NCBI GenBank assembly: GCA_963710415.1
Contig: CAVQAH010000024.1
Coordinates: forward strand, 150,234 to 214,233
DNA length: 64,000 nucleotides
From: an uncultured Acidobacteriota bacterium
GTDB taxonomy: Bacteria; Acidobacteriota; Vicinamibacteria; Vicinamibacterales; 2-12-FULL-66-21
Direction of reading: 5' to 3'
Made by a program: the position numbers and the translations under genes. Within the stretch, counting starts at the first letter, position 1. Every line of letters begins with the position of its first letter. Shown piece by piece: positions 23,311-51,368 of this stretch. The notes under the pieces were generated by a model that saw only the letters and a list, made by a program, of their open reading frames with translations, made no database searches and was not told the origin of the DNA.

Positions 23311-23355
23311 GGATGATCTACTCGAGGATGATCTACGCGAAGATGACCTACTCGA
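23311..23355. repeat. 15-nt tandem repeat x3
   Basis: 'GGATGATCTACTCGA GGATGATCTACGCGA AGATGACCTACTCGA' fills the 37-nt gap between convergent aroB and the regulator. The last unit contains the regulator's stop codon. Confidence 0.8.
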
Positions 23356-24742
23356 GGCGGTGCTCTTTGACCTTGGAGAGCAGCATCTTGTAGGTGATCT
23401 GCAACAGCTCGGCGGCGCGGCCCTTGTTGTTATCGGCTTCCCGCAGGACCTGCTGGATCTTCAGACGCTCGGCCAGTGACATCGCGCGCCTGCCGACGTC
23501 GGTGAGACTGCCCGACATCTCGAACTCCGCCCACGGATCCGCTTCGGGCTCCGGCTGCGCATGAACGGCGTGGAACGTCAGGTTGAGATGACGCGGCAGA
23601 ATCGTGTCGCCTTCGGCGAGGATGACGGCGCGCTCGATGCTGTTCTGCAGCTCGCGGACGTTCCCCGGCCACCGGTATGACACGAGCTGCTCCACGGCGG
23701 CCGGCGACAGCACGATCGGTTTCTTCTTCATGTCGCGGCAGAAGCGGTCCGTGAAGTAACGAGCGAGGAGCGGGATGTCGCCCGGCCGCTCGCGCAGCGG
23801 CGGCACCGTAATCGGGAACACCGATAGCCTGAAGAACAGGTCCTCGCGAAAGCGCCGCGCGGCCACTTGTGCGCGCAGACCGCGATTGGTTGCGGCGACG
23901 AGCCGGACGTCGACCGTCACGAGCGCGGTGCCCCCGACACGCTCGAAGCGTTTTTCTTCGAGGGCGCGGAGAATTTTCGCCTGCAGCGAGAGGGGCAGAT
24001 CGCCGATCTCGTCGAGGAACAGCGTGCCGTGGTGAGCCATCTCGAACTTGCCAGGCTTCCTGGCCACGGCGCCGGTAAACGCGCCCTTTTCATGTCCGAA
24101 GAGCTCGGTCTCGAGCAGGGTTTCAGGGATGGCCGCGCAGTTGATCGCGACAAACGGCTCGTCTGCGCGCGGGCTCAGCGCGTGCAGCGAGCGCGCGAAC
24201 AACTCCTTACCGGTACCGCTTTCCCCTTCGAGGAGCACCGTCGTGTCGGTCGACGCGGCGCGCTGCAGCGAAGCGAACACCTTGCGCAGCGAGGGATCTT
24301 CGCCGACGAGCAACGGCGCGCCGCGCCGCACCGCGAGCTCTTCCTTCAGCAGGAGGTTTTCCGTCTGTATGCGGCGCTGCTCCAGGGCGCGAGCGACCAG
24401 CAGCAACAGATGGTCGGGATCGACAGGCTTCGCCAGAAAGTCGAGCGCGCCTTCCCTCATGGCGGCGACCGCATCCTCGATGCTGCCGTACGCCGTCATG
24501 ACGATCACCGGGATCTCCGAATCGAGTTCCTTGGTCGCGCGGAGGACGCCGAAGCCGTCACCTGCCGGGAGCCGCAGATCCGAAAGGACGAGCGCTGGCT
24601 GGTTGTGCTGAAGAAGTTGGACGGCTTCTTCCTGATCGCGCGCCTCGAGGACACCATGACCCTGGCGCTCCAGCGCGTGCCGAAGCATCGCGCGCAGCGA
24701 GTCCTTGTCCTCGACGATCAGGATTTGGGCGGGCGCAGCCAA
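23348..24742 (-). CDS. Sigma54-dependent response regulator (NtrC family: REC + AAA+ + Fis-type HTH)
   Basis: ORF 23348..24742 (464 aa), intact. Contains '[19 protein letters not shown]...DLRLPAGDG', '[53 protein letters not shown]' and a C-terminal HTH '[23 protein letters not shown]'. Confidence 0.9.
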
Positions 24743-35329: not shown

Positions 35330-36589
35330 TCACCCCGGGAGAGGGAGCGTCACGGTCAGCCTGGCCCCGCCACCCTCGGCATTGGCGGCCGCCACGCGTC
35401 CGTTGTGCGTCACGATGATCTTCTGGACGAGCGCGAGGCCGAGTCCCGTGCCGCGCGCTTTCGTGGTGAAGAAAGGCCTGAACATGCGTGCCTGCATGGC
35501 CTCCTGGATTCCCGCGCCGTTGTCGGTCACTGTCACGCGGAGCACCGGATGGCCAGGCTCGCGGCTGCCTTCGATGACGATTCTTGGCGTCACATTCGCT
35601 TCGAGGCACGCCTCCAGGGCGTTGCGACAGAGGTTGCTGAAGGCCTGCCGCAGCAGCACCTCGTCACCATCGACGTGGCCAAACTCGCCGAGAATGTCGA
35701 TTGTCCCTCCCCTGGATCTGACGTCGCCGCGCACGTCGTCGGCGGCACGCTCGACCACTGCCGACATGTCCACGGGGGTCAGCACCAACTCGGTGGGCTT
35801 GGCGAAGTTCAGGAAGTTGGTGACCACCTGACCGAGCGCCTCGGTCTCGTCGCGGATGCCGACCACGCACGCTCTGAAATCGTCGGGCAGACGATCGAGA
35901 TCCAGCAGCCGGCTATAGCCATGAATCGTCGCCAGACCATTGCGGAATTCGTGCGCGATGCCGGCGGTCAGCTCACCGAGCCGCGCCAGGCTGTCTTTCA
36001 GCCGCAATTGCTCCTCGAGCTCGACGACGTCGCTCAGGTCCGTGAACAGGCAGATGGCGCCGTGCGCCGCATCGTCGCCGGCGATGGGCGAGACGGTGAC
36101 GCCGAGGTGTGACGTCGTACCGTTGGCTTTCTTCATCTGCACCGCGCGGCGTACGATGGCGCGGCGGCTCGTCAGACATTCGTCCAGGACGTCGGCCAAC
36201 GCGCTGCTGTCCGTCAACATTTCACGAAAATGTCCGAGCGGCGCGTCCGTGGGCAGATGCAGTATCGATCGGCCGGCGGGGTTCAACGTGCGCACGGCGC
36301 CCTCGGCGCCGACCACCAGCAGGCCTGACGTCATGCTCGCGATGATTTCGCTGCTCAGGCGTTCTGATGCCTCGGCGCGCGCCGCCATCGCACGCTCCTC
36401 GATCCGGAGCTTGCGCACGGCTTCCTCCATGGCTGATGCCATGAAGGCCGTTTCCGCACCTTCGACACGACCTGATTGCGTAGCGGCGCGGGCGGCGGTA
36501 AAGAACTTCGCTGCCGCGAAGGCGAGCAACCCCACCAGCGCCGCGACGACGGCCGTCAAACCGAGGAAGAGGTAGGCTGACTGAGTCAT
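35330..36589 (-). CDS. Membrane sensor histidine kinase (TM + PAS-like + HisKA + HATPase_c, NtrB/AtoS-like)
   Basis: ORF 35330..36589 (419 aa), intact. The H-box is 'LGELTAGIAHEFRNGLATIHGYSRLL'. 'VTDNGAGI' and 'GTGLGLALVQKIIVTHNG' are present. Confidence 0.85.
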   Translation of the reverse strand: MTQSAYLFLGLTAVVAALVGLLAFAAAKFFTAARAATQSGRVEGAETAFMASAMEEAVRKLRIEERAMAARAEASERLSSEIIASMTSGLLVVGAEGAVRTLNPAGRSILHLPTDAPLGHFREMLTDSSALADVLDECLTSRRAIVRRAVQMKKANGTTSHLGVTVSPIAGDDAAHGAICLFTDLSDVVELEEQLRLKDSLARLGELTAGIAHEFRNGLATIHGYSRLLDLDRLPDDFRACVVGIRDETEALGQVVTNFLNFAKPTELVLTPVDMSAVVERAADDVRGDVRSRGGTIDILGEFGHVDGDEVLLRQAFSNLCRNALEACLEANVTPRIVIEGSREPGHPVLRVTVTDNGAGIQEAMQARMFRPFFTTKARGTGLGLALVQKIIVTHNGRVAAANAEGGGARLTVTLPLPG

Positions 36590-36723: not shown

Positions 36724-37500
36724 TCAGATCCTATAGAGCCCCACATACCACGCGACGATCTGATCGCCGAACAACGACGCGATGAGGGCGCCCAGCGCGA
36801 GGAAGGTACCGTAGGGGAGCGCGTATTTCAAACCGCCCTTCCTGATCGCCAGAACCAGCAGGCCGATCAGCGCGCCTGCGATCGACGAGAACACCAGCGT
36901 GACGATGGCCAGCTTCCAGCCGAGGAAGGCGCCAATCATCGCCAACATCTTCACGTCGCCGCCGCCCATGCCTTCCTGGCCGGAAAAGCGGTAGTACACC
37001 TCGCCGATGGCCCAGAGACTGCCGCCGCCAATCAAGGCTCCGAGTGCGGCCGCGATGATCCCGGGCGGCAGCAACAAGCTGAAGGCCAATCCGATGGCGA
37101 TCCCGGGGAGCGTGATGGCATTCGGCAGCAGATGATGCTCCAGGTCGATGGCGAAGAGCACGATCAGCATGCAGGCAAAGAACAGCCGCGGGACAAGCAG
37201 GATGTCCGGCCCGATGATCAGATAGTGCGCCAGGAATACGACCATCGTCACGACCTCGATGATCGGATACCGGATCGAGATTGGCGCGCGGCACGAGCGG
37301 CATCGGCCGCGCAGGAGCAGGTAGCTGATCACCGGAATGTTGTCGTACCAGCGCAGGGCGTAGCCGCACCCGGGGCACCGGGAACCGGGGCTGACGACCG
37401 ACTTGTGTTCTGGTAAGCGGTGGATGCAGACGTTGAGGAAACTGCCGACAGCGAGACCGAACAGGGCCAGCACTGTCACCACGAAAGTGTCGGACATCAT
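36724..37500 (-). CDS. pilD: Prepilin peptidase / N-methyltransferase (A24 family)
   Basis: ORF 36724..37500 (258 aa), intact. Contains 'FLNVCIHRLPEHKSVVSPGSRCPGCGYALRWYDNIPVISYLLLRGRCRSCRAPISIRYPIIE' and 'GGGDVKMLAMIGAFLG'. Confidence 0.9.
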   Translation of the reverse strand: MMSDTFVVTVLALFGLAVGSFLNVCIHRLPEHKSVVSPGSRCPGCGYALRWYDNIPVISYLLLRGRCRSCRAPISIRYPIIEVVTMVVFLAHYLIIGPDILLVPRLFFACMLIVLFAIDLEHHLLPNAITLPGIAIGLAFSLLLPPGIIAAALGALIGGGSLWAIGEVYYRFSGQEGMGGGDVKMLAMIGAFLGWKLAIVTLVFSSIAGALIGLLVLAIRKGGLKYALPYGTFLALGALIASLFGDQIVAWYVGLYRI

Positions 37501-41489: not shown

Positions 41490-42026
41490 TTACCGGGCGG
41501 TCGGCAGCTTCAGCTCGCGCCCGTTCGAAGGGGCGCCCTTCTCGGGCATCTTCCCGGTGAACGTCTCCATGCCCTCGAAGATCACACGGTCGACGTTCGA
41601 GCCGAAATACCGAATCCCGGTCGACCCCGGGTTGGTGGGGTCGGCAGTCACCTGATAACCGGAAGCGGGCTTGTTGCCGGTGCACGCCTTCACGTCGGTC
41701 TCGACCTCGGTGCCGGCCATCTGCACGAAGTACCCATTCTTCCGCACTTGCTCGGCGTAGGTCAGGTCGGGACTCAGGAAAGCCGTGCCAGACCCGGGCA
41801 CCGGTGTTCCCAGCTCCACCAACGTCGGCGCGAAATTCTGCCGACCGCACGTCTGCATGTAAGCGAACTGTGCCTGGTTGATCGCCTCGAGCGCGGCAAT
41901 GGCGGATGCCTCGGCGCCCAATATCCGCGCGTTTCGATACGACGCGACCGAGATCGACAGCAGGACCGCGATGACCGCCATCACGATCAACAGCTCGACC
42001 AGCGTGAAACCGCGAATACCTCGCAC
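41490..42026 (-). CDS. Type IV pilin paralog 1
   Basis: ORF 41490..42026 (178 aa) with 'IRGFTLVELLIVMAVIAVLLSISVASYRNARILGAEASAIAALEAINQAQFAY'. Two Cys residues are present. Confidence 0.8.
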   Translation of the reverse strand: MRGIRGFTLVELLIVMAVIAVLLSISVASYRNARILGAEASAIAALEAINQAQFAYMQTCGRQNFAPTLVELGTPVPGSGTAFLSPDLTYAEQVRKNGYFVQMAGTEVETDVKACTGNKPASGYQVTADPTNPGSTGIRYFGSNVDRVIFEGMETFTGKMPEKGAPSNGRELKLPTAR

Positions 42027-42039
42027 GAATCCAGCTTAC

Positions 42040-42217
42040 ACGTGTTTACTGCGGACGTGTGCAGTGCCACGTGCTGCCGTGGTCCGTGGTCGCGTGCGTC
42101 CGTGTCTGCCGTGCGATCTGCAGCACGCGCGAACATAACCGTGACAGCAGTATCGATGCGAGACACGTAGCACGTGACGAAGCAGCACGGACTACGGAGG
42201 ACGTCCGCACGTGCACG
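42040..42217. repeat. ACGTGC-type heptamer array forming a long imperfect inverted repeat
   Basis: The arms are 'CTGCGGACGTGTGCAGTGCCACGTGCTGCCGTGGTCCGTGG...' and '...CACGGACTACGGAGGACGTCCGCACGTGCACG'. Same unit family as 61801-61967 and 63955-64000. Confidence 0.7.
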
Positions 42218-42764
42218 TTACTGCAGCACGGTCCCTCCGCCTGACGGATCCATCTCCCCCTCGGTTGGCGGAGATGCCGTCCGGCCTGAAGAACAGCACG
42301 TACTTGTTCGTCGTGGCGAACGCCCTGTGGCCGGACCGCCCAATCGACAGCGGAGCGGCGGTCAGGTAATAGCCCATGCGCGTCTGCGATCCGTGGCAGT
42401 CGAATGGCCCGAGCACGGCGCTGCCGGCGTCGAGCGTGATTGTGTAGCCGCTCTTCGTCGACGGGTCCACCGCGAGGTCGGGCGAGATGAATCCGACGGA
42501 TCCGCCGGGGCATGCGGTGGCGAGCACCGACAACTGCACCGCGTATCCTCCGGTCGTGGCCGACGCCGCAAACGCGGCTTCGGCGCTGTTCACCGCGCGC
42601 AGCGTTCCGATGGCGGAGGACTCGTTGCCCGCCATGCGTGCCCGCAGCAGCATCGGCAGCGCCATGGCCGAGACGATTCCGATGATCGCCACCGCTGCCA
42701 GAAGTTCTATCAGTGAAAATCCGCGCGCGCCGTTCGAACGCGCTCGCGCAGCACGCCCCGCCAT
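42192..42764 (-). CDS. Type IV pilin paralog 2 (3' end probably mis-framed; likely true stop near 42218)
   Basis: ORF 42192..42764 has 'ARGFSLIELLAAVAIIGIVSAMALPMLLRARMAGNESSAIGTLRAVNSAEAAF'. An alternative frame ends '...SGGGTVLQ*', parallel to '...ETGGTPLQ*' in the pilA alternative frame. Confidence 0.8.
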   Translation of the reverse strand: MAGRAARARSNGARGFSLIELLAAVAIIGIVSAMALPMLLRARMAGNESSAIGTLRAVNSAEAAFAASATTGGYAVQLSVLATACPGGSVGFISPDLAVDPSTKSGYTITLDAGSAVLGPFDCHGSQTRMGYYLTAAPLSIGRSGHRAFATTNKYVLFFRPDGISANRGGDGSVRRRDRAAVTCTCGRPP

Positions 42765-42857
42765 ACATTCCTCCGTTCAGGGCGGCCTTCGGTCGGGTCT
42801 CGTCCCCAGGCGAACCTTCCGCCTTGTCGAGGCCCCCGGCGTGAGCTGTCGAAGGCC

Positions 42858-42895
42858 AAAAAAAAAGGATGCCCGTGCAGCCGGGCATCCTTTTT
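42858..42895 (-). terminator. Strong intrinsic terminator after pilA
   Basis: The minus strand reads 'AAAAAGGATGCCCG-gctgca-CGGGCATCC-TTTTTTTTT'. It has a 9-bp perfect stem, a 6-nt loop and a 9-T tract. Confidence 0.85.
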
Positions 42896-42901
42896 CGGGT
42901 C

Positions 42902-43438
42902 TTACGAGGTGCTTACTGGAGCGGCGTGCCGCCGGTCTCCGGCAGGAGCGCCACCGGTCGCGTCCGCCACGAAGTAGAGCGTGCCGTGCGCTGCAGTCGA
43001 GAACCCGCGAACGCCCGTGTTGCCGACGCCCACCGGAACTGCCGTCGCGTAGTAACCCGTGCGGCTCACCGTCGTGCCGCTGCAATCCGTCGTCACGTCC
43101 GCAGGCGTTCCAACCGTGCTGTCCGCCAGCGCGATCGTGTAGCCGCTCTTGATGGACGGGTCGGCCGCGAGGTCAGGCGAAATGAACCCCTGCGACGAGC
43201 CCGGGCAGGGCGTTGACAGCACCGCCAGCAGAATCGCATATCCGCCGCCACCCGCCGACGCTGAATACGCCGCTTCCGCGCTGTTGACCGCGCGAAGCGA
43301 ACCGATAGCCGACGACTCGTTGCCCGACATGCGGGCGCGCAGCAGACCCGGAACGGCGATCGCCGCGATGATGCCGATGATCGCCACGACGATCAGCAGC
43401 TCAATAAGCGTGAAACCCTTCTGGTTACGAACCTTCAT
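42902..43438 (-). CDS. pilA: Major type IV pilin (own sigma54 promoter and terminator)
   Basis: ORF 42902..43438 (178 aa) with 'QKGFTLIELLIVVAIIGIIAAIAVPGLLRARMSGNESSAIGSLRAVNSAEAAY'. Two Cys residues are present. An alternative-frame C-terminus '...ETGGTPLQ*' would put the stop at about 42913. Confidence 0.85.
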   Translation of the reverse strand: MKVRNQKGFTLIELLIVVAIIGIIAAIAVPGLLRARMSGNESSAIGSLRAVNSAEAAYSASAGGGGYAILLAVLSTPCPGSSQGFISPDLAADPSIKSGYTIALADSTVGTPADVTTDCSGTTVSRTGYYATAVPVGVGNTGVRGFSTAAHGTLYFVADATGGAPAGDRRHAAPVSTS

Positions 43439-43529
43439 GACACTCTCCCTCGAAAAATTCAGTTGGCCGCTTGAGCGTTATGTCGGACTCGACTTGGCCT
43501 AAGCCCAGCGGCCGACGAGCTTCCGTTGA

Positions 43530-43544
43530 GCAACGGAAGTGCCA
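43530..43544 (-). promoter_or_regulatory. Sigma54 (-24/-12) promoter of pilA
   Basis: The minus strand reads 'TGGCACttccgTTGCt', a perfect consensus, about 95 nt upstream of the pilA ATG. pilR (a sigma54 activator) is adjacent. Confidence 0.8.
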
Positions 43545-43652
43545 CCCTCTTCCTTCAGACGGGTGTATCGGCTAAACGGCCTTATCTCAAGAGGTTATCT
43601 AGGATGGCGTCTTACGGGGCGGAGCATCCAGACCTGCCAATTTTCGGTCTCC

Positions 43653-43667
43653 TGACAAATTCTGTCA
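43653..43667. promoter_or_regulatory. Palindrome TGACA-N5-TGTCA (candidate enhancer/PilR site) upstream of pilA
   Basis: 'cTGACAaattcTGTCAa' lies about 115 nt upstream of the -24 element in a locally AT-richer region. A near-identical site occurs at 51257..51271. Confidence 0.5.
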
Positions 43668-43835
43668 ACCCGGAGCTGGCAGGAATTGTCGATACACCCC
43701 TATGCATATATTACCCGTAAGTTGTACTAGCGTAAGCCGTAGCCCGACGCTGTGGCCGTAACTCGTCAGCTCGGCTAGCTCGAATCCAGCCGCGACCTTG
43801 CCGATTCACCGCGACGCCCGACCTGAAGGTCGGGC

Positions 43836-45267
43836 TTACTTCAGATTGTATTTCTTCATGTAATACCGGAACGATCGGAAGCTCATGCCGAGCAGTTCGG
43901 CGGCCTTGACCTTGACACCGCCGGCGCGCCGTAGGGCTTCGGCGATGTACTCCCGCTCGATGTGCTGGACGTGCTGTTCGAGGTCGATCCCGCCTTCGGG
44001 GAAGCCGTCCCCTGGCTGGACGTTCACCGGGCAGTTGGATGCGGCGCTGTTTCGCGGACCTGCTCGGGCAGGCTGTCCGCGAGGATCGTCGGCGTGCGCT
44101 CGAGCGCCACCGCCCGTTCGATGGCGTTTTCGAGCTCGCGGATATTCCCCGGCCACGGGTAGGCCTTCAGGCAGGCCAGCGCGTCGCCCGAGATGCCGGT
44201 AATCCCCTTCCCCATCTGCTCGGCGAAGCGGGTCACGAAGTGCTCGGCCAGGAACGGGATGTCTTCGACCCGCTCGCGCAGGGCTGGCAAGACGAATGGG
44301 GATGACGTTGATCCGGTAGAAGAGGTCCTCGCGGAACTCGCCCGCGGCCACCATCTTCGACAAATCCCGGTTGGTGGCGGCAATGACCCGGATGTCCGCT
44401 TCGACCTCCTCGGTCCCGCCGAGCCGCCTGAAGCGCCGCTCCTGCAGCACACGCAGACAGCTTGACCTGGACGAGCGGGCTCATCTCGCCGATCTCGTCG
44501 AGGAAGATCGTGCCCTTGTCGGCGACTTCGATCAGTCCCTTCTTGTTGGTGTCCGCGCCCGTGAACGCGCCGCGCATATGTCCGAACAGTTCCGAGTCGA
44601 GCAGGGTCTCGGACAGTGCCCCGCAGTTGACCGCCACGAACGGCTTGTCTTTTCGGAGCGAGTGGAAGTGGATGGCCCGCGCGACGAGCTCCTTGCCGGT
44701 GCCCGACTCGCCGGTGATCAGCACCGTGCTGCTGGTCGGCGCAATCGTCTCGATCAGCTGGAAGACCGCGAGCATCGGCTCGCTGCGCCCGATGATGTTC
44801 GAGAACTGGTGCGCGGTCTGCAGCGCGCGCTTCAGGAGCACGTTCTCCCGCTGCAGGTGGCGGCGCTCCATTTCCTTTCGCACCCGCAGCCGGACTTCGT
44901 TGGCGGCGCCAGGCGACTTGTGCACGTAATCGGCCGCGCCGAGGCGCAGCGCTTCGACCGCGGTGTCCGTCGACGCGAACGCCGTCATCACGATGCTGAT
45001 GATCTCCGGGTCGATCTTCTTGGCCTCCCTGAGGACGTCCACGCCGCTCATCTGCGGCATCCGGATATCGGTGATCAGGATGTCGACGCGTTCGCGCTTG
45101 AGCAGGTCGATCGCGACCGCCCCATTCTCGGCAAGCAGCACTTCATAGCCATCGCGGCGCAGCACGATCGTCAGCAGCTCCCGCATCGACCGCTCGTCGT
45201 CGACGACGAGCACGCGGGGAGGAGTCTCCGACGCCGAACGATTCGGTGTTCGCACCTCGGTGGCCAT
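43836..45267 (-). CDS. pilR: Sigma54-dependent response regulator PilR, three frame breaks
   Basis: ORF 44233..45267 carries REC plus '[53 protein letters not shown]'. It continues in ORFs 43836..44450 and 44024..44452 ('[14 protein letters not shown]'). The C-terminal HTH is '[25 protein letters not shown]'. Breaks are near 44455, 44290 and 44030. Confidence 0.85.
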
Positions 45268-45270
45268 AGA

Positions 45271-46949
45271 TCAGTTCGTCAGCGCCGCGTGGGATTCGGC
45301 CGGTTGCGAGGCGAGCGGAAGCTTCACGGTCACGCTCGTGCCCTGATTCGGTTGCGACGTGACCTGAAGCTCGCCGCCGTAGTCGCTGACAATCCGGTGG
45401 ACGATCGAAAGTCCGAGCCCGGTTCCGCGTGAGAACCCGCCGCGAAATGGCTGCAGGATGCCCTCGAGCTGATCGGACGGGATGCCGACGCCCTCGTCGC
45501 GCGACCACGATCATCGCCTCGCCGGGCGCGTCCCCGTCGCGGTCTACTGCCGTGACGGCCAGTGTGAGCCGGCCGCCGCCGGGCATCGCGCGAAGCCCGT
45601 TGGTCGCGAGGTTCCACACAATCTGCCTCATTTGCCCTTCGTCGGCCGTGCACCAGACCGGCTCGTCGGGCACCTCCAGCTTCATGTCGTGCGTCTCGTG
45701 CAGCTCGGGGCTGTTCTGCAGCAGCGTTGCCGTGTCCGTCACCGCCTTGCGCAGGTCGAGCCTCGCGGCAGACTGACGCTGCGGCCGCGCATAGGCCAGG
45801 AAGCTCTTGATCGTCTCGTTCAGCCGCTCGGACTCGCGCATGACGATGTCCATCAGCTGTGCCTGTTCGTCGGTCAGCGGCAGTTCCTGGCGCAGGATCT
45901 GAATCGAACCGGACATCGACGCCAGCGGGTTTCGAATCTCGTGTGCGATCCCGGCCGCCATCTCGCCCACCGCGGCGAGGCGCTGCTGAATCCGTGCCTC
46001 GCGCTCGTGTTTCCGCGCGTCGGTGACGTCCTGGAACGTGATCACGAACCCGCTCTCGCCGCGGGGCGTGATCAGAATCGCGGTGCTGATGCCGAGCTCG
46101 ATCTGCCGGCCGTCCGCCTGCCGGTAGTCGGTACTCGACGCGAGGTAACGGCGGCCGCTGCTCCCTCGGCCCGAACAAGGCCGAACACCCGGGCGGCAGC
46201 TGGAGAATTTCGAACGCGCCGCGGCCGACGGCGTAGCGCGCCGGAATGCCGGTGATCGTCTCAGCGGCACGGTTGAACGTGAGCACGCGGCCGGCGAGAT
46301 CGGTGGTCAACAGCCCGCTCGCGAGACTGTTGATGGCGTATTCGCTGAACGCTTGCAGGTCGGCAATCTGGTTGGACGCCTCCTCGAGCTCCTGCCCGGC
46401 GCGGCGCAGACCTTCGGCCAGGTATCCGCTCAGGGAAGCGACGGCAATGAAGCCGAAGACGTTCAAGCCGACCGTATAGAGCGCCACGCGCTCGGGCGGC
46501 AGGATCTCGGCGCCGGTGACGACCGACATCGGCGGCGGTCCCGCGTATTGCGCCCATACGAGCCCGCTGTAGATCAGCGAGCTCAACACGCCGATCATCA
46601 GCCCGCCGCGCAGCGACTGGATAGTACTCGCGGCGATGATCGGCAGCATGTACAGCGTCGAGAAGGAGCTCACGACACCGCCGGTCATGTGCACGACGGC
46701 CGACACGATCAGGACGTCGCAGGCGAGCTGGACGTCGACGATCCAGCGATGCTGTTCGGCCTGCTTCAGCAGCAGCGAATACACCGCCGTCAGCGTGTAG
46801 GTCAGGCCGATGAGGAAAAAGAACGGATCGACCGGCAGCGCGCCCGGCGAATGGATTTGGATCACAATCGCCGAGCCGAGCAGGACCGTTACGGCTGCCG
46901 CGCGGCAGCCAATCAGCCAGAGAAGTCTTCGACGAAGCTCGACCGCCAC
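45271..46949 (-). CDS. pilS: Sensor histidine kinase PilS (multi-TM + PAS + HisKA + HATPase), two frame breaks
   Basis: ORF 45330..46949 carries the TM region and the start of the PAS domain. ORF 45143..46270 has the H-box 'AAGIAHEIRNPLASMSGSIQIL'. The last ~75 codons ('RDEGVGIPSDQLEGILQPFRGGFSRGTGLGLSIVHRIV...ALTN*') are in a third frame, with the stop at about 45271. Breaks are near 46150 and 45500. Confidence 0.85.
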
Positions 46950-46950
46950 G

Positions 46951-48165
46951 TCACCCTGTCAACTTGTTGATCAGGTCGAAGATCGGCATATACATCGCGA
47001 TGACGATGCCGCCGACCACAACTCCCAGGAACGCGATCATGATCGGCTCGAGCAGCGTCAGCATGCCGGCCACGGCGGAGTCCACTTCCTCTTCATAGAA
47101 ATCGGCAATCTTCGACAGCATCGCGTCGAGCGCGCCGGTCGTTTCGCCGACGTTGATCATTTGGACGACCATCGACGGAAAGACGTTGGTTTCTTTGAGG
47201 GGACCCGAAATGGTCTCGCCGCGCTCGATGCCGGAGCGAGTCAGCAGTATGGCATCCTCGATGATGGCGTTGCCGGACGTCCGGGCCGTGATGTCCAGCC
47301 CGTCCAGGATGGGAACGCCCGAGGCCAGCAGGGTCGACAACGTGCGGCAGAATCGGGCCACAGAGACCTTGCGGATGATGTTGCCGAGGACAGGGGTCTT
47401 GAGCATGATCCGGTCGATCATGTGCCGCCCGCCATCGGTCGCGTAGTAGCGGTTCACCATGTAACCGGCGGCGCCGACGATGATGAGCATCAGCCAGCCC
47501 CAGGCGACGACGATGTCGCTGGCGGCCATGACGATGCGGGTGGGGAGCGGCAGCTGGGCACCAAGACCTTGGAACAGGGAGGCGAAGGTCGGGATGACCT
47601 TCCACAGGATGGCGCCGACGACCAGCGTCGCAATGACGATGACGGCGACCGGGTAGATCATCGCCGACTTCACGTCACCCTTCAGCTTGACGTTCTTCTC
47701 GATGTAGGTCGCCAGCCGCTTCAGGATCGTGTCCAGGATACCGCCGGCCTCACCTGCCGCGATCATGTTCGAGTAGAGCGCGTCGAACGTCTTCGGATGG
47801 CGCTTCATGCTGTCGGCGAGTGCCGCGCCCGCCTCGACGTCTTCCCGGACCTTGAGGATGACCGCCGAGAAATGCTTGTTCGGCTCCTGCTTGCCGAGGA
47901 TGTCCAGACACTGGACGAGCGGCAGGCCGGCGTCGATCATGACCGAGAACTGTCGCGTGAAGATCGCCAGGTTCTTGGCAGGGACGGATTTGCCCTTGGG
48001 CGGTTTGGCCTTTGCCTCCGCCCTGGCTTTCGACGGATCGATCTTCGTGACGACGATCTGCTCGCGCCTGAGCAGTGCCATCGCGCCGTCCATCGTGTCC
48101 GCGACACGCTCGCCGGTGACCGATTGCCCCGTCCGTGTCCGCCCCGAGAAGGCAAAAGTAGGCAT
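46951..48165 (-). CDS. pilC: Type IV pilus platform protein PilC
   Basis: ORF 46951..48165 (404 aa), intact. Contains 'LAIFTRQFSVMIDAGLPLVQCLDIL' and a repeated GspF domain. Confidence 0.9.
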   Translation of the reverse strand: MPTFAFSGRTRTGQSVTGERVADTMDGAMALLRREQIVVTKIDPSKARAEAKAKPPKGKSVPAKNLAIFTRQFSVMIDAGLPLVQCLDILGKQEPNKHFSAVILKVREDVEAGAALADSMKRHPKTFDALYSNMIAAGEAGGILDTILKRLATYIEKNVKLKGDVKSAMIYPVAVIVIATLVVGAILWKVIPTFASLFQGLGAQLPLPTRIVMAASDIVVAWGWLMLIIVGAAGYMVNRYYATDGGRHMIDRIMLKTPVLGNIIRKVSVARFCRTLSTLLASGVPILDGLDITARTSGNAIIEDAILLTRSGIERGETISGPLKETNVFPSMVVQMINVGETTGALDAMLSKIADFYEEEVDSAVAGMLTLLEPIMIAFLGVVVGGIVIAMYMPIFDLINKLTG

Positions 48166-48196: not shown

Positions 48197-49315
48197 CTAA
48201 CGGCGCGGCTGCGCTCCGACCCGATTCATCCCTGCTCCGGCAACCACTCCCGTGCCCCGTTCGATCATCTGCTGGAGTTCGTCTTTGATCGACGACGCCC
48301 CGAGCGCGGCATCCAGCGTGATGAACCGCCGTTGATACAGCGTCGCCAGATTCTGGTTCATCGTCTGCATCCCCAGCTTTTCCTGCCCCGCCTGCATCGT
48401 CGAATAGATCTGATGGACTTTGTCGTCGCGAATCAGGTTACGGATGGCGGCAGTGGGGATCATGATCTCGAGCGCGACGACACGCCCCTGTCCATCGGCC
48501 CTCGGCAGCAGCGTCTGACACACGATGCCTTCGAGCACCAGCGACAGCTGCGTTCTGATCTGGCCCTGCTGGTGTGAGGGGAAGACGTCGATGATTCGGT
48601 TGATCGTCTGCGCCGCGGAGTTGGTGTGCAGCGTCGCGAACGTGAGGTGCCCCGTTTCGGCGATGCGCAGCGCGTTCTCGATCGTCTCGAGATCGCGCAA
48701 CTCGCCGATGAGGACGATGTCCGGGTCCTCGCGCAGCGCCGAGCGCAGCGCGGACGCAAACCCGTGGGTGTCGGCGTGTACTTCTCTCTGGTTGACGATG
48801 CACCCCTTGTGCGGGTGGATGTACTCGATCGGATCCTCGATGGTGAGGATGTGCTCGCGGCGCTCCGTATTGATCTTGTCGATCATGGCGGCGAGCGTCG
48901 TCGACTTGCCGCTGCCGGTCGGGCCGGTGATCAGCACCAGGCCGCGCGGTCGATCGGCCAGCGAGCCGATGACTTCGGGAAGACCGAGCTCGTGAAAGCT
49001 CTTGATCTGTTCTGGAATGACTCGATAGACGGCCGCCACCGCCCCGCGCTGGTTGAAGACGTTGCAGCGGAAGCGGGCGATGCCCCGGATGCCGAAGGAA
49101 AAGTCCAGTTCGAGCGTCTCCTCGAAACGCTTCTTCTGGGCATCGGTGAGGACGCTGTAGGCCAGCGTCTTCGTCTCGGCTGGACCGAGTGGCGGCAGGT
49201 CGAGCAACTGCAGCTTACCGTGCAGCCGGATCTGGGGCGGCGTCTGCGTCGTCAGGTGCAGGTCGGAGCCGCCGAATTCGACCAGTGTTTTCAGGAGTTC
49301 GGGTAGCGTTGCCAT
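48197..49315 (-). CDS. pilT: Type IV pilus retraction ATPase PilT
   Basis: ORF 48197..49363, from the Met at 49315. Contains 'GLVLITGPTGSGKSTTLAAMID', 'ILTIEDPIEY', 'DPDIVLIGELRDLETI' and 'AETGHLTFATLHTNSA'. Confidence 0.9.
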   Translation of the reverse strand: MATLPELLKTLVEFGGSDLHLTTQTPPQIRLHGKLQLLDLPPLGPAETKTLAYSVLTDAQKKRFEETLELDFSFGIRGIARFRCNVFNQRGAVAAVYRVIPEQIKSFHELGLPEVIGSLADRPRGLVLITGPTGSGKSTTLAAMIDKINTERREHILTIEDPIEYIHPHKGCIVNQREVHADTHGFASALRSALREDPDIVLIGELRDLETIENALRIAETGHLTFATLHTNSAAQTINRIIDVFPSHQQGQIRTQLSLVLEGIVCQTLLPRADGQGRVVALEIMIPTAAIRNLIRDDKVHQIYSTMQAGQEKLGMQTMNQNLATLYQRRFITLDAALGASSIKDELQQMIERGTGVVAGAGMNRVGAQPRR

Positions 49316-49319
49316 AGCG

Positions 49320-51128
<1,809 letters not shown>

Positions 51129-51256
51129 CGTTGTCTCTTGATGCGAATGTGCGCGGCGCAGACGCCGACGCCGTTCCATCTGAACGCACGTCGACGTACG
51201 TGTTCCGACGGCGAGGGGCGTCTTGCTGCTTGGGGAGGTCAATAGTTTGGGGGTGC

Positions 51257-51271
51257 TGACAAATATTGTCA
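51257..51271. promoter_or_regulatory. Palindrome TGACA-N5-TGTCA upstream of pilB
   Basis: 'cTGACAaatatTGTCAa' lies about 130 nt upstream of the pilB ATG. Same motif and flanks as 43653..43667. Confidence 0.45.
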
Positions 51272-51368
51272 AGGGCTGAGCTAATGGAATCGGGAGGGGT
51301 GATGGATTGATTGCAGAATCGTAAAGAACCATGTCGGGTGGAAGTTGGCAGTTGGGATTTGACAAGGA

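Follow-up and report, generated by a model that had tools for sequence, protein, structure and literature searches.

Tandem PilR-type sites upstream of the sigma-54 promoter of pilA and a putative operator copy in the pilB promoter of an uncultured bacterium of the Vicinamibacterales

The type IV pilus locus considered here lies in a stretch of 64,000 nucleotides (hereafter the window; GenBank assembly GCA_963710415.1, contig CAVQAH010000024.1, positions 150,234 to 214,233) from an uncultured acidobacterium of the order Vicinamibacterales. By Pfam assignment, its genes follow one another on the minus strand in the order pilB-pilT-pilC-pilS-pilR-pilA (Table 1). A sigma-54 promoter precedes pilA, and the palindrome TGACA-N5-TGTCA stands both upstream of this promoter and upstream of pilB; these two copies, and their probable relation to the response regulator PilR, are the subject of this report. 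A PilS-type kinase and PilR are encoded as a pair adjoining the pilus genes, the arrangement that marks a PilS-PilR regulon. PilR contains a GAFTGA motif at residue 233 together with a Walker A motif, and its gene, which encodes an AAA+ domain with GAFTGA and a C-terminal helix-turn-helix (HTH), lies directly upstream of pilA, as expected of the cognate activator of an upstream activating sequence (UAS). The pilB product is 91% identical to that of the closest relative over one continuous frame.

Table 1. Genes and regulatory features of the pil locus, in window positions and in the order in which they are met on the minus strand.
Feature	Position	Strand	Description
Second PilR-type site, putative operator	51257-51271		TGACAaatatTGTCA; inside the pilB promoter, centre about -28 from the predicted start
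Sigma-70-type promoter of pilB-pilT-pilC-pilS-pilR (putative)	51244-51272	minus	-35 TTGACA 51267-51272, 17-nt spacer, weak -10 CAAACT 51244-51249
pilB	49320-51128	minus	Extension ATPase; Pfam T2SSE and MshEN; start codon 51126-51128
pilT	48197-49363	minus	Pfam assignment
pilC	46951-48165	minus	Pfam assignment
pilS	45316-46949 (about)	minus	Sensor kinase; Pfam 6TM_PilS (six-helix membrane domain) and PAS
pilR	43836-45267	minus	Response regulator, sigma-54 enhancer-binding protein; Pfam Response_reg, Sigma54_activat and HTH_8 (Fis-type HTH)
Site 1 (distal, weaker)	43677-43691		pilA strand CGACAattccTGCCA; 24 nt upstream of site 2; centre about -166
Site 2 (main PilR-type site)	43653-43667		TGACAaattcTGTCA; TGACA-N5-TGTCA; centre about -142
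Site 3 (proximal, weaker)	43635-43649		pilA strand GACCGaaaatTGGCA; 18 nt downstream of site 2; centre about -124
IHF-like bend site (candidate)	43585-43597	plus	TCTCAAGAGGTTA, one mismatch to WATCAANNNNTTR; between enhancer and promoter, centre about -73
Sigma-54 (-24/-12) promoter of pilA	43530-43544	minus	TGGCACttccgTTGC; reverse complement of the interval is TGGCACTTCCGTTGC, then T
pilA	42902-43438	minus	Major type IV pilin, 178 aa; Pfam N_methyl

The first-pass annotation of this DNA had assigned a sigma-54 consensus to pilA, and the assignment holds, since TGGCAC-N5-TTGC has a single exact match in the window, the pilA promoter, and the promoter is kept in related loci. Read on the minus strand at 43529-43544, TGGCACTTCCGTTGCT has GG and GC 10 nt apart within the pattern TGGCAC-N5-TTGCW that characterizes sigma-54 promoters, and it is oriented towards pilA, 106 nt upstream of the ATG. 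Matches with one mismatch to TGGCAC-N5-TTGC are at background in the window (5 observed, 4.25 expected). For comparison, 80 related loci were collected by a PilC search with one genome per species (PilC identity 71-87%); nearly all are labelled Vicinamibacterales, Vicinamibacteria or Acidobacteriota, and the sample consists of pil-locus neighbourhoods of about 20 kb, 1.52 Mb in total. In most of these loci, TGGCAY-N5-TTGC lies about 100-120 nt (50-190) upstream of the first pilin ATG, and a sigma-54 promoter of pilA is also present in the Geobacter and Myxococcus relatives. From the position of the -12 GC, transcription of pilA is predicted to start near 43518, which would make the leader about 80 nt long. 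Around the -12 element lies the small inverted repeat CTTCCGTTG/CAACGGAAG (43520-28 / 43531-39), in which the promoter had been described as embedded; its length of 9 bp is found only in the window, and just 2 of 67 promoters reach 6 bp at the same place. A hairpin at this position was therefore rejected as an element, and it is not an RNA hairpin in any case because the right arm alone would be transcribed.

Upstream of this promoter, the palindrome is both rare and fixed in position. TGACA-N5-TGTCA has two exact matches in the 64 kb, at 43653-43667 and 51257-51271, where 0.03 are expected, and none of 100 shuffles gave two; the pair had been noted before, and neither copy recurs elsewhere in the window. 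The extended form cTGACAaatNNTGTCAa retrieves the same two matches only, even when two mismatches are allowed. A weight matrix was built from the related genomes only, with the window excluded and with 20 shuffled windows as the null; it placed the two palindromes at ranks 1 and 2 (29.0 and 26.0 bits; shuffled maximum 16.7), and no other window site scored above the shuffle range. Perfect palindromes number 72 in the related loci, where an estimate from base composition gives roughly 0.6, and nearly all of them are in the pilB promoter or upstream of pilin promoters, and palindromes with one mismatch occur elsewhere in these loci at about the chance rate. When 85-160 nt upstream of the -24 element were searched, a palindrome with at most one mismatch was found at 67 of 90 sigma-54-like pilin promoters. 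The spacing between the palindrome and the -24 element is mostly 98-135 nt; it falls at 119-126 nt in 39 promoters and at 123 nt in the window.

Alignment of these 39 promoters, anchored on the palindrome, revealed a weaker site on either side of it. Site 1 follows the consensus [C/T]GACA-N5-TGNCA and starts 23 nt upstream of site 2 in most relatives; in the window, its region (43676-43692) is the third-best match to the weight matrix, at 12.1 bits. Site 3 appears as the block gCC.aAaAttGgCa, which comprises a weak left half, an AAAAT spacer and TGGCA or TGTCA. The three sites thus show the geometry of a UAS, with inverted repeats in tandem about 80-200 nt upstream of a sigma-54 promoter. This arrangement recasts the repeats between which the palindrome had first been seen as nested: CCTGCC and GGCAGG are present, and they are now read as the outer half-sites of the two weaker flanking PilR-type sites, namely of sites 3 and 1, respectively. 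The outer repeat GGGTGTATCG/CGATACACCC (43561-70 / 43690-99) is likewise present in the window; none of the 38 relatives compared has it, their longest comparable repeat measuring 4-7 nt, the level of shuffles, and being unique to the window it is unsupported as a functional element. The description of the region as locally AT-richer was accurate, the GC fraction being about 0.53-0.55, compared with about 0.65-0.70 on either side. An IHF-like site between enhancer and promoter may add to this picture: of 62 related pilA promoters, 17 have a match to WATCAANNNNTTR with no more than one mismatch, where shuffles give about 3, and the centres of these matches all fall between -49 and -85, which is suggestive only.

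It is very probable that the palindrome upstream of pilA is an enhancer bound by PilR, as the first-pass annotation had proposed, in view of its fixed spacing in the Vicinamibacterales, its counterparts in Geobacter and Myxococcus, and a common recognition helix. The helix [S/T]FR[S/Q]FRY is common to the PilR proteins examined from the Vicinamibacterales, Geobacter and the Myxococcus group. The C-terminal sequence ...LG[ML][ST]FRSFRY... occurs in Geobacter and Myxococcus-group PilR proteins and in 64 Vicinamibacterales loci, and the remaining Vicinamibacterales loci have SFRQFRY (TFRQFRY in two, SPRQFRY in one). The other enhancer-binding proteins (EBPs) of the same loci carry different helices, e.g., ISHRALLYKI in Myxococcus PilR2, and so does the second EBP of the window. 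Co-occurrence of the palindrome with PilR-type proteins extends across three phyla, with conserved position and register. In both G. sulfurreducens and M. xanthus, according to published work, pilA requires PilR and sigma-54. Furthermore, the NtrC-like protein NmpR of M. xanthus binds GCGCA-N5-TGCGC in tandem upstream of sigma-54 promoters; the 5-N5-5 layout of TGACA-N5-TGTCA matches that of the NmpR site and thus fits a protein of the NtrC family, although the half-site sequences and the regulon differ.

Close parallels are found in Geobacter and its relatives, in which G. sulfurreducens, G. hydrogenophilus, Geobacter sp. FeAm09 and Oryzomonas have TGAC[A/G]-N5-[T/C]GTCA 97-110 nt upstream of the sigma-54 promoter of pilA. 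G. sulfurreducens has the same gene order, pilB-pilT-pilC-pilS-pilR-pilA, and carries TGACGAAAATCGTCA (TGACG-N5-CGTCA) 100 nt upstream of the promoter. In G. hydrogenophilus, Geobacter sp. FeAm09 and Oryzomonas japonica, the palindrome is a perfect TGACA-N5-TGTCA at 97-110 nt, and a weaker site comes about 22 nt after it; Geobacter PilR has the same helix, in the form TFRSFRY. These bacteria differ in belonging to another phylum and in having one strong and one weak downstream site rather than three. Moreover, no palindrome was found at the Geobacter pilB promoter (TTGACA-17-TACGAT), unlike in the Vicinamibacterales.

Myxococcus, Corallococcus and Archangium have two or three such sites in steps of 21-22 nt, located 68-111 nt upstream of the sigma-54 promoter of pilA. 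The gene order of the M. xanthus type is the same as that of the window. In a Myxococcus strain and in Corallococcus, TGGCAT-N5-GTGC is preceded at a distance of about 90-110 nt by CGACA-N5-CGTCA and TGCCG-N5-TGTCA, which are 22 nt apart; the sites of the Myxococcus strain read CGACAGTTATCGTCA and TGCCGAATTTTGTCA, and its pilin is 97% identical to what we take to be the M. xanthus PilA sequence. Archangium has three sites in 21-nt steps, although its pilR is not adjacent to pilA. The PilR helix of Myxococcus is SFRSFRY, and its sites are more degenerate than those of the Vicinamibacterales. In M. xanthus, an additional internal promoter of pilR is under the control of NmpR. Upstream of Corallococcus pilB, no site was found, and since the Geobacter and Corallococcus pilB regions examined both lack the palindrome, the pilB copy looks specific to the Vicinamibacterales.

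This second copy starts 143 nt upstream of the pilB start codon rather than about 130 nt, as had been given, and the site itself is confirmed. Among 68 related loci, the palindrome upstream of pilB is perfect in 38 and has one mismatch in 9 (47 together); it usually reads cTTGACAAAAA[G/A]TGTCAa. The aligned loci show TACACT, TACAAT or TATACT 5-6 nt beyond the palindrome and, further on, a conserved tCTCCCCCAGC. Of 46 relatives, 42 retain TTGACA and 20 have a -10-like hexamer at a spacing of 16 nt, compared with 0-6 at any other spacing. The left half of the palindrome is part of the -35 hexamer and 9 nt reach into the spacer; this overlap, centred near -28, corresponds to the position of an operator, and the start of pilB transcription is predicted near 51237. 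The distance from the palindrome to the pilB ATG varies from 38 to 205 nt among relatives, which fits a promoter with a leader of variable length, and in seven loci the two are 38-43 nt apart, too close to accommodate an enhancer and a sigma-54 promoter beyond it. The copy is therefore best described as a putative operator inside a predicted sigma-70-type promoter, which would probably serve the repression or autoregulation of pilBTCSR. As there is little or no gap between pilB-pilT-pilC and the pilS and pilR genes behind them, the simplest effect of PilR bound at this site would be repression of its own operon and of the assembly genes, and a precedent exists in Lysobacter, in which PilR directly represses lchD. 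Repression is accordingly the sign that we favour for PilR at pilB, by a modest margin over even odds.

Two further features accompany the pilB promoter. In most related loci, the -10 hexamer is followed after about 8-10 nt by the conserved tCTCCCCCAGC motif, which reads CCTCCCCAAGC on the minus strand of the window (51228-51238) and falls on the predicted start or immediately behind it; the clade with very short leaders lacks the motif. Six loci with pilB leaders of 38-43 nt (L039, L042, L046, L051, L053 and L059) carry, about 20 nt upstream of the operator, a further palindrome of related sequence (TGACGTTTTAGGTCA or the like). This extra copy might act as a tandem operator on one and the same helical face.

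Several explanations other than binding by PilR were weighed for the palindrome itself. A different transcription factor might own it and control pilA and pilB, PilR acting elsewhere or on the weaker flanking repeats. The location of one copy inside a sigma-70 promoter is typical of a classical repressor, and the P. aeruginosa PilR site, as quoted in later papers, is another string (TGT-N11-ACA, or a NifA-like TGT-N11-AGA with GTCT elements). However, across three phyla the motif keeps to an enhancer-like distance from the sigma-54 promoter of pilA, always with a PilR of the same helix, and its tandem copies in steps of 21-24 nt are those expected of an EBP oligomer; its 5-N5-5 geometry is that of NtrC-family sites, and no other gene was seen to accompany it across the three phyla in the regions examined, which were not surveyed systematically for this purpose. 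We therefore consider a foreign owner quite unlikely. About equally improbable is that the palindromes are nothing but sigma-70-type promoters, with TTGACA as the -35 element and a -10 element at 16-17 nt, so that the palindrome would be a by-product and a second pilA promoter would lie at 43668-43640. A consensus scan does report TTGACA-17-GAAAAT within the pilA enhancer, matching at 10 of 12 positions, the GAAAAT lying in site 3; a GAAAAT-like hexamer is found at the 17-nt spacing in 18 of 62 related pilA regions, and the pilB copy is clearly set in a promoter-like context. Nevertheless, the T that completes TTGACA is present in just 23 of 62 pilA promoters, the conserved downstream block runs through TGGCA/TGTCA, which fits a half-site better than a -10 hexamer, and a promoter alone leaves unexplained why, at the two loci as well as in other phyla, exactly 5 nt separate TGACA from TGTCA. 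An upstream sigma-70 promoter of pilA is possible in this sub-clade and would not account for the motif; at pilB, the sigma-70 and operator readings are compatible and not mutually exclusive.

At pilB, the alternatives concern what the bound protein does. The first-pass annotation had suggested that pilB may be co-regulated with pilA, and the common site is indeed real and conserved; joint activation is the part that is not supported, as the site overlaps a predicted sigma-70-type promoter, and the two transcription units are probably regulated in opposite directions or, for pilB, autoregulated. In that version, PilR would act on pilB from the palindrome through the weak sigma-54-like TGGAACggcgtCGGC at 51164-78 (TGGAAC-N5-CGGC). 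This match is present, its GG and GC are rightly spaced, and the 93 nt by which it follows the palindrome would suit an enhancer; yet it has three mismatches to the consensus, and a match with two mismatches or fewer occurs downstream of the palindrome in just 1 of about 47 relatives, at a different position. The features conserved at the palindrome are instead the -35 and -10 hexamers, and in the seven loci with the shortest leaders the intervening space is lacking, so that a sigma-54 promoter of pilB, being unconserved and without room in some genomes, was rejected and such co-activation is judged extremely improbable. PilR might alternatively activate or fine-tune the sigma-70 promoter, or the site might be a high-affinity sink that titrates PilR. 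The sign of regulation is not readable from sequence, the pilB site is the best consensus match in the window at 29 bits, and the weak -10 element of the window could mean that an activator is needed. Against this, a dimer near -28 would cover the -35 element and the spacer, the classical position for occlusion, and EBPs with an intact GAFTGA loop, which PilR has, activate the sigma-54 holoenzyme and not sigma-70. The known parallels, NtrC at glnAp1 and the Lysobacter protein at lchD, are also repressive. Activation or titration is thus an unlikely outcome, though far less so than co-activation through sigma-54.

The explanation that we prefer, i.e., a sigma-54 promoter of pilA with a three-site PilR enhancer and a PilR operator at pilB, has a probability of about 0.75 as a whole, and several points weigh against it. 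The consensus quoted for Pseudomonas PilR is not literally TGACA-N5-TGTCA, and sites 1 and 3 are weak, each within the range of chance scores. The -10 element of pilB in the window (CAAACT) is weak, and the consensus scan calls no promoter there; the pilBTCSR operon, for its part, is drawn from gene spacing alone. The scan covered pil-locus neighbourhoods, which leaves room for a wider regulon or a different cognate factor. Finally, five frameshifts interrupt pilR and pilS in the assembly. Text searches of the literature found no PilR with a TGACA-type consensus; they returned second-hand consensus strings, the primary papers on Pseudomonas and Geobacter sites being outside their scope.

The frameshifts are probably due to an error-prone assembly. 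Compared with intact relatives, the frame of pilR as assembled has three breaks, near 44457, 44295 and 44040, and that of pilS has two, near 46128 and 45495. The HisKA and ATPase parts of PilS are recovered in other frames in the window, and the same parts are intact in relatives, while the frames of pilB, pilT, pilC and pilA are intact. Relative to short-read assemblies, the same kind of break affects a VKOR-like gene at about 40815 and, between 52.5 and 55.9 kb, several genes of the plus strand; because other genes of the window are affected in the same manner, assembly error is the likelier cause, and the notion of pilS and pilR as specifically decayed pseudogenes was set aside. A true inactivation of pilSR may nonetheless be the source of the breaks. 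An extra T in pilR (AAGCTG[T]CTGCGT) sits outside any homopolymer.

With respect to better-known systems, the layout resembles P. aeruginosa in that an enhancer-binding response regulator acts on repeated short elements upstream of a sigma-54 pilin promoter, and it differs in that the site quoted there is not a 5-N5-5 palindrome. Jin, Ishimoto and Lory are said to have described in 1994 that the repeats bound by PilR in P. aeruginosa have a (C/G)TGTC core, the same as the half-site here. In Pseudomonas, pilR is not adjacent to pilA. NtrC of enteric bacteria activates the sigma-54 promoter glnAp2 from upstream and represses the sigma-70 promoters that it overlaps, glnAp1 and glnLp, including the promoter of its own operon; its sites are inverted repeats with an AT-rich spacer, TGCACC-N5-GGTGCA. 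The likeness lies in one EBP with the same type of site working in two modes, the repressive one being conjectural here, whereas the regulon and the site sequence differ and the two transcription units of the window stand about 7.6 kb apart. NorR of E. coli needs three sites to form its active oligomer, and the pilA enhancer likewise has three, with different half-sites and a different regulon.

Some features of the pilR-pilA intergenic region and of the pilA leader stand apart from the enhancer. The predicted 5' leader of pilA (43462-43517, minus strand) starts with a strongly conserved block, CGTCGGCCGCTGG...CCAG..CCGAC, and about 45 nt after this block GCGGCC is complementary to a GGCCGC near the 5' end. 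RNAalifold returned an invariant 5-bp stem, GUCGG/CCGAC, and three weak pairs with almost no covariation; the conserved block may be a 5' stabilising hairpin or a site acting at the protein or DNA level. No Rfam family was found in the leader or the intergenic region, and the sole match, to CRISPR-DR9 at 18.5 bits against a threshold of 45, is sub-threshold and spurious. It falls on a perfect 9-bp hairpin, GCCCGACCT-tc-AGGTCGGGC (43816-43835), which directly follows the pilR stop codon without a T-run and is possibly a terminator that parts the pilR transcript from the pilA enhancer.

The surroundings of the locus include three tandem pilin genes (41490-42026, 42192-42764 and 42902-43438), of which the one at 42902-43438 is pilA, the first in the order of the minus strand; the second and third pilins are 57% and 39% identical to it. 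In the window, a sigma-54 promoter and enhancer of its own were found for the first pilin gene and not for the second and third. In some relatives (L017, L032, L039, L046, L066 and L073), a second pilin gene has its own palindrome and sigma-54 pair. An open reading frame at 42046-42888 was rejected as a gene, since it has no Pfam match and two further pilins are the real genes there. A prepilin peptidase is encoded at 36724-37500, and a second intact sigma-54 enhancer-binding response regulator and a PAS histidine kinase occupy 23348-24742 and 35330-36589. No RpoN-box protein is encoded within the 64-kb window; the two GAFTGA-type activators imply that the genome has sigma-54. Additionally, four contigs of the comparison sample (L037, L043, L078 and L079; PilC identity 72-74%) bear the public titles Bifidobacteriaceae, Bifidobacterium sp., Bifidobacterium breve and Acidimicrobiia and are probably mis-binned or mislabelled metagenome-assembled genomes.

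Taken together, the sites suggest the following mechanism. Phosphorylated PilR, encoded directly upstream of pilA, would bind the three tandem sites as dimers, and the dimers could assemble into an AAA+ ring, a hexamer of three dimers being the arrangement that we infer from the number of sites. Across the AT-rich, IHF-like stretch that separates enhancer and promoter, the ring would loop to the sigma-54 holoenzyme at pilA and open the promoter with ATP. At 51257-71, PilR would block RNA polymerase at the sigma-70-type promoter of pilB, which would place pilS-pilR and the assembly genes under negative feedback while pilA is switched on. We propose, tentatively and at slightly less than even odds, that PilR works in this dual mode throughout the Vicinamibacterales, activating the sigma-54 pilin promoter through three tandem sites and, through one site of high affinity, repressing its own operon with the motor and platform genes, and that its box is ancient and common to three phyla.

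If this proposal is true, dual-mode PilR would constitute a lineage-specific feedback loop, absent from the Geobacter and Corallococcus pilB regions examined, and TGACA-N5-TGTCA would be an ancient PilR box of the Acidobacteriota, Desulfobacterota and Myxococcota. Control of the major pilin by sigma-54 and PilR is textbook knowledge in Pseudomonas, Myxococcus and Geobacter, and the present case mainly extends this scheme to an uncultured soil order of acidobacteria. What the comparison adds is a concrete candidate for the PilR recognition sequence, the tandem TGACA-N5-TGTCA, which is apparently common to three phyla; such a box would aid the prediction of PilR regulons in uncharacterised genomes and would help to clarify the inconsistent descriptions of the site in the literature. 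The conserved copy in the pilB promoter suggests, in turn, a feedback link between the supply of pilin and the assembly and regulatory genes. The locus is thus an instance of a known and well-conserved regulatory design, in a phylum in which it had not been studied, with an extra, lineage-specific site in the pilB promoter.

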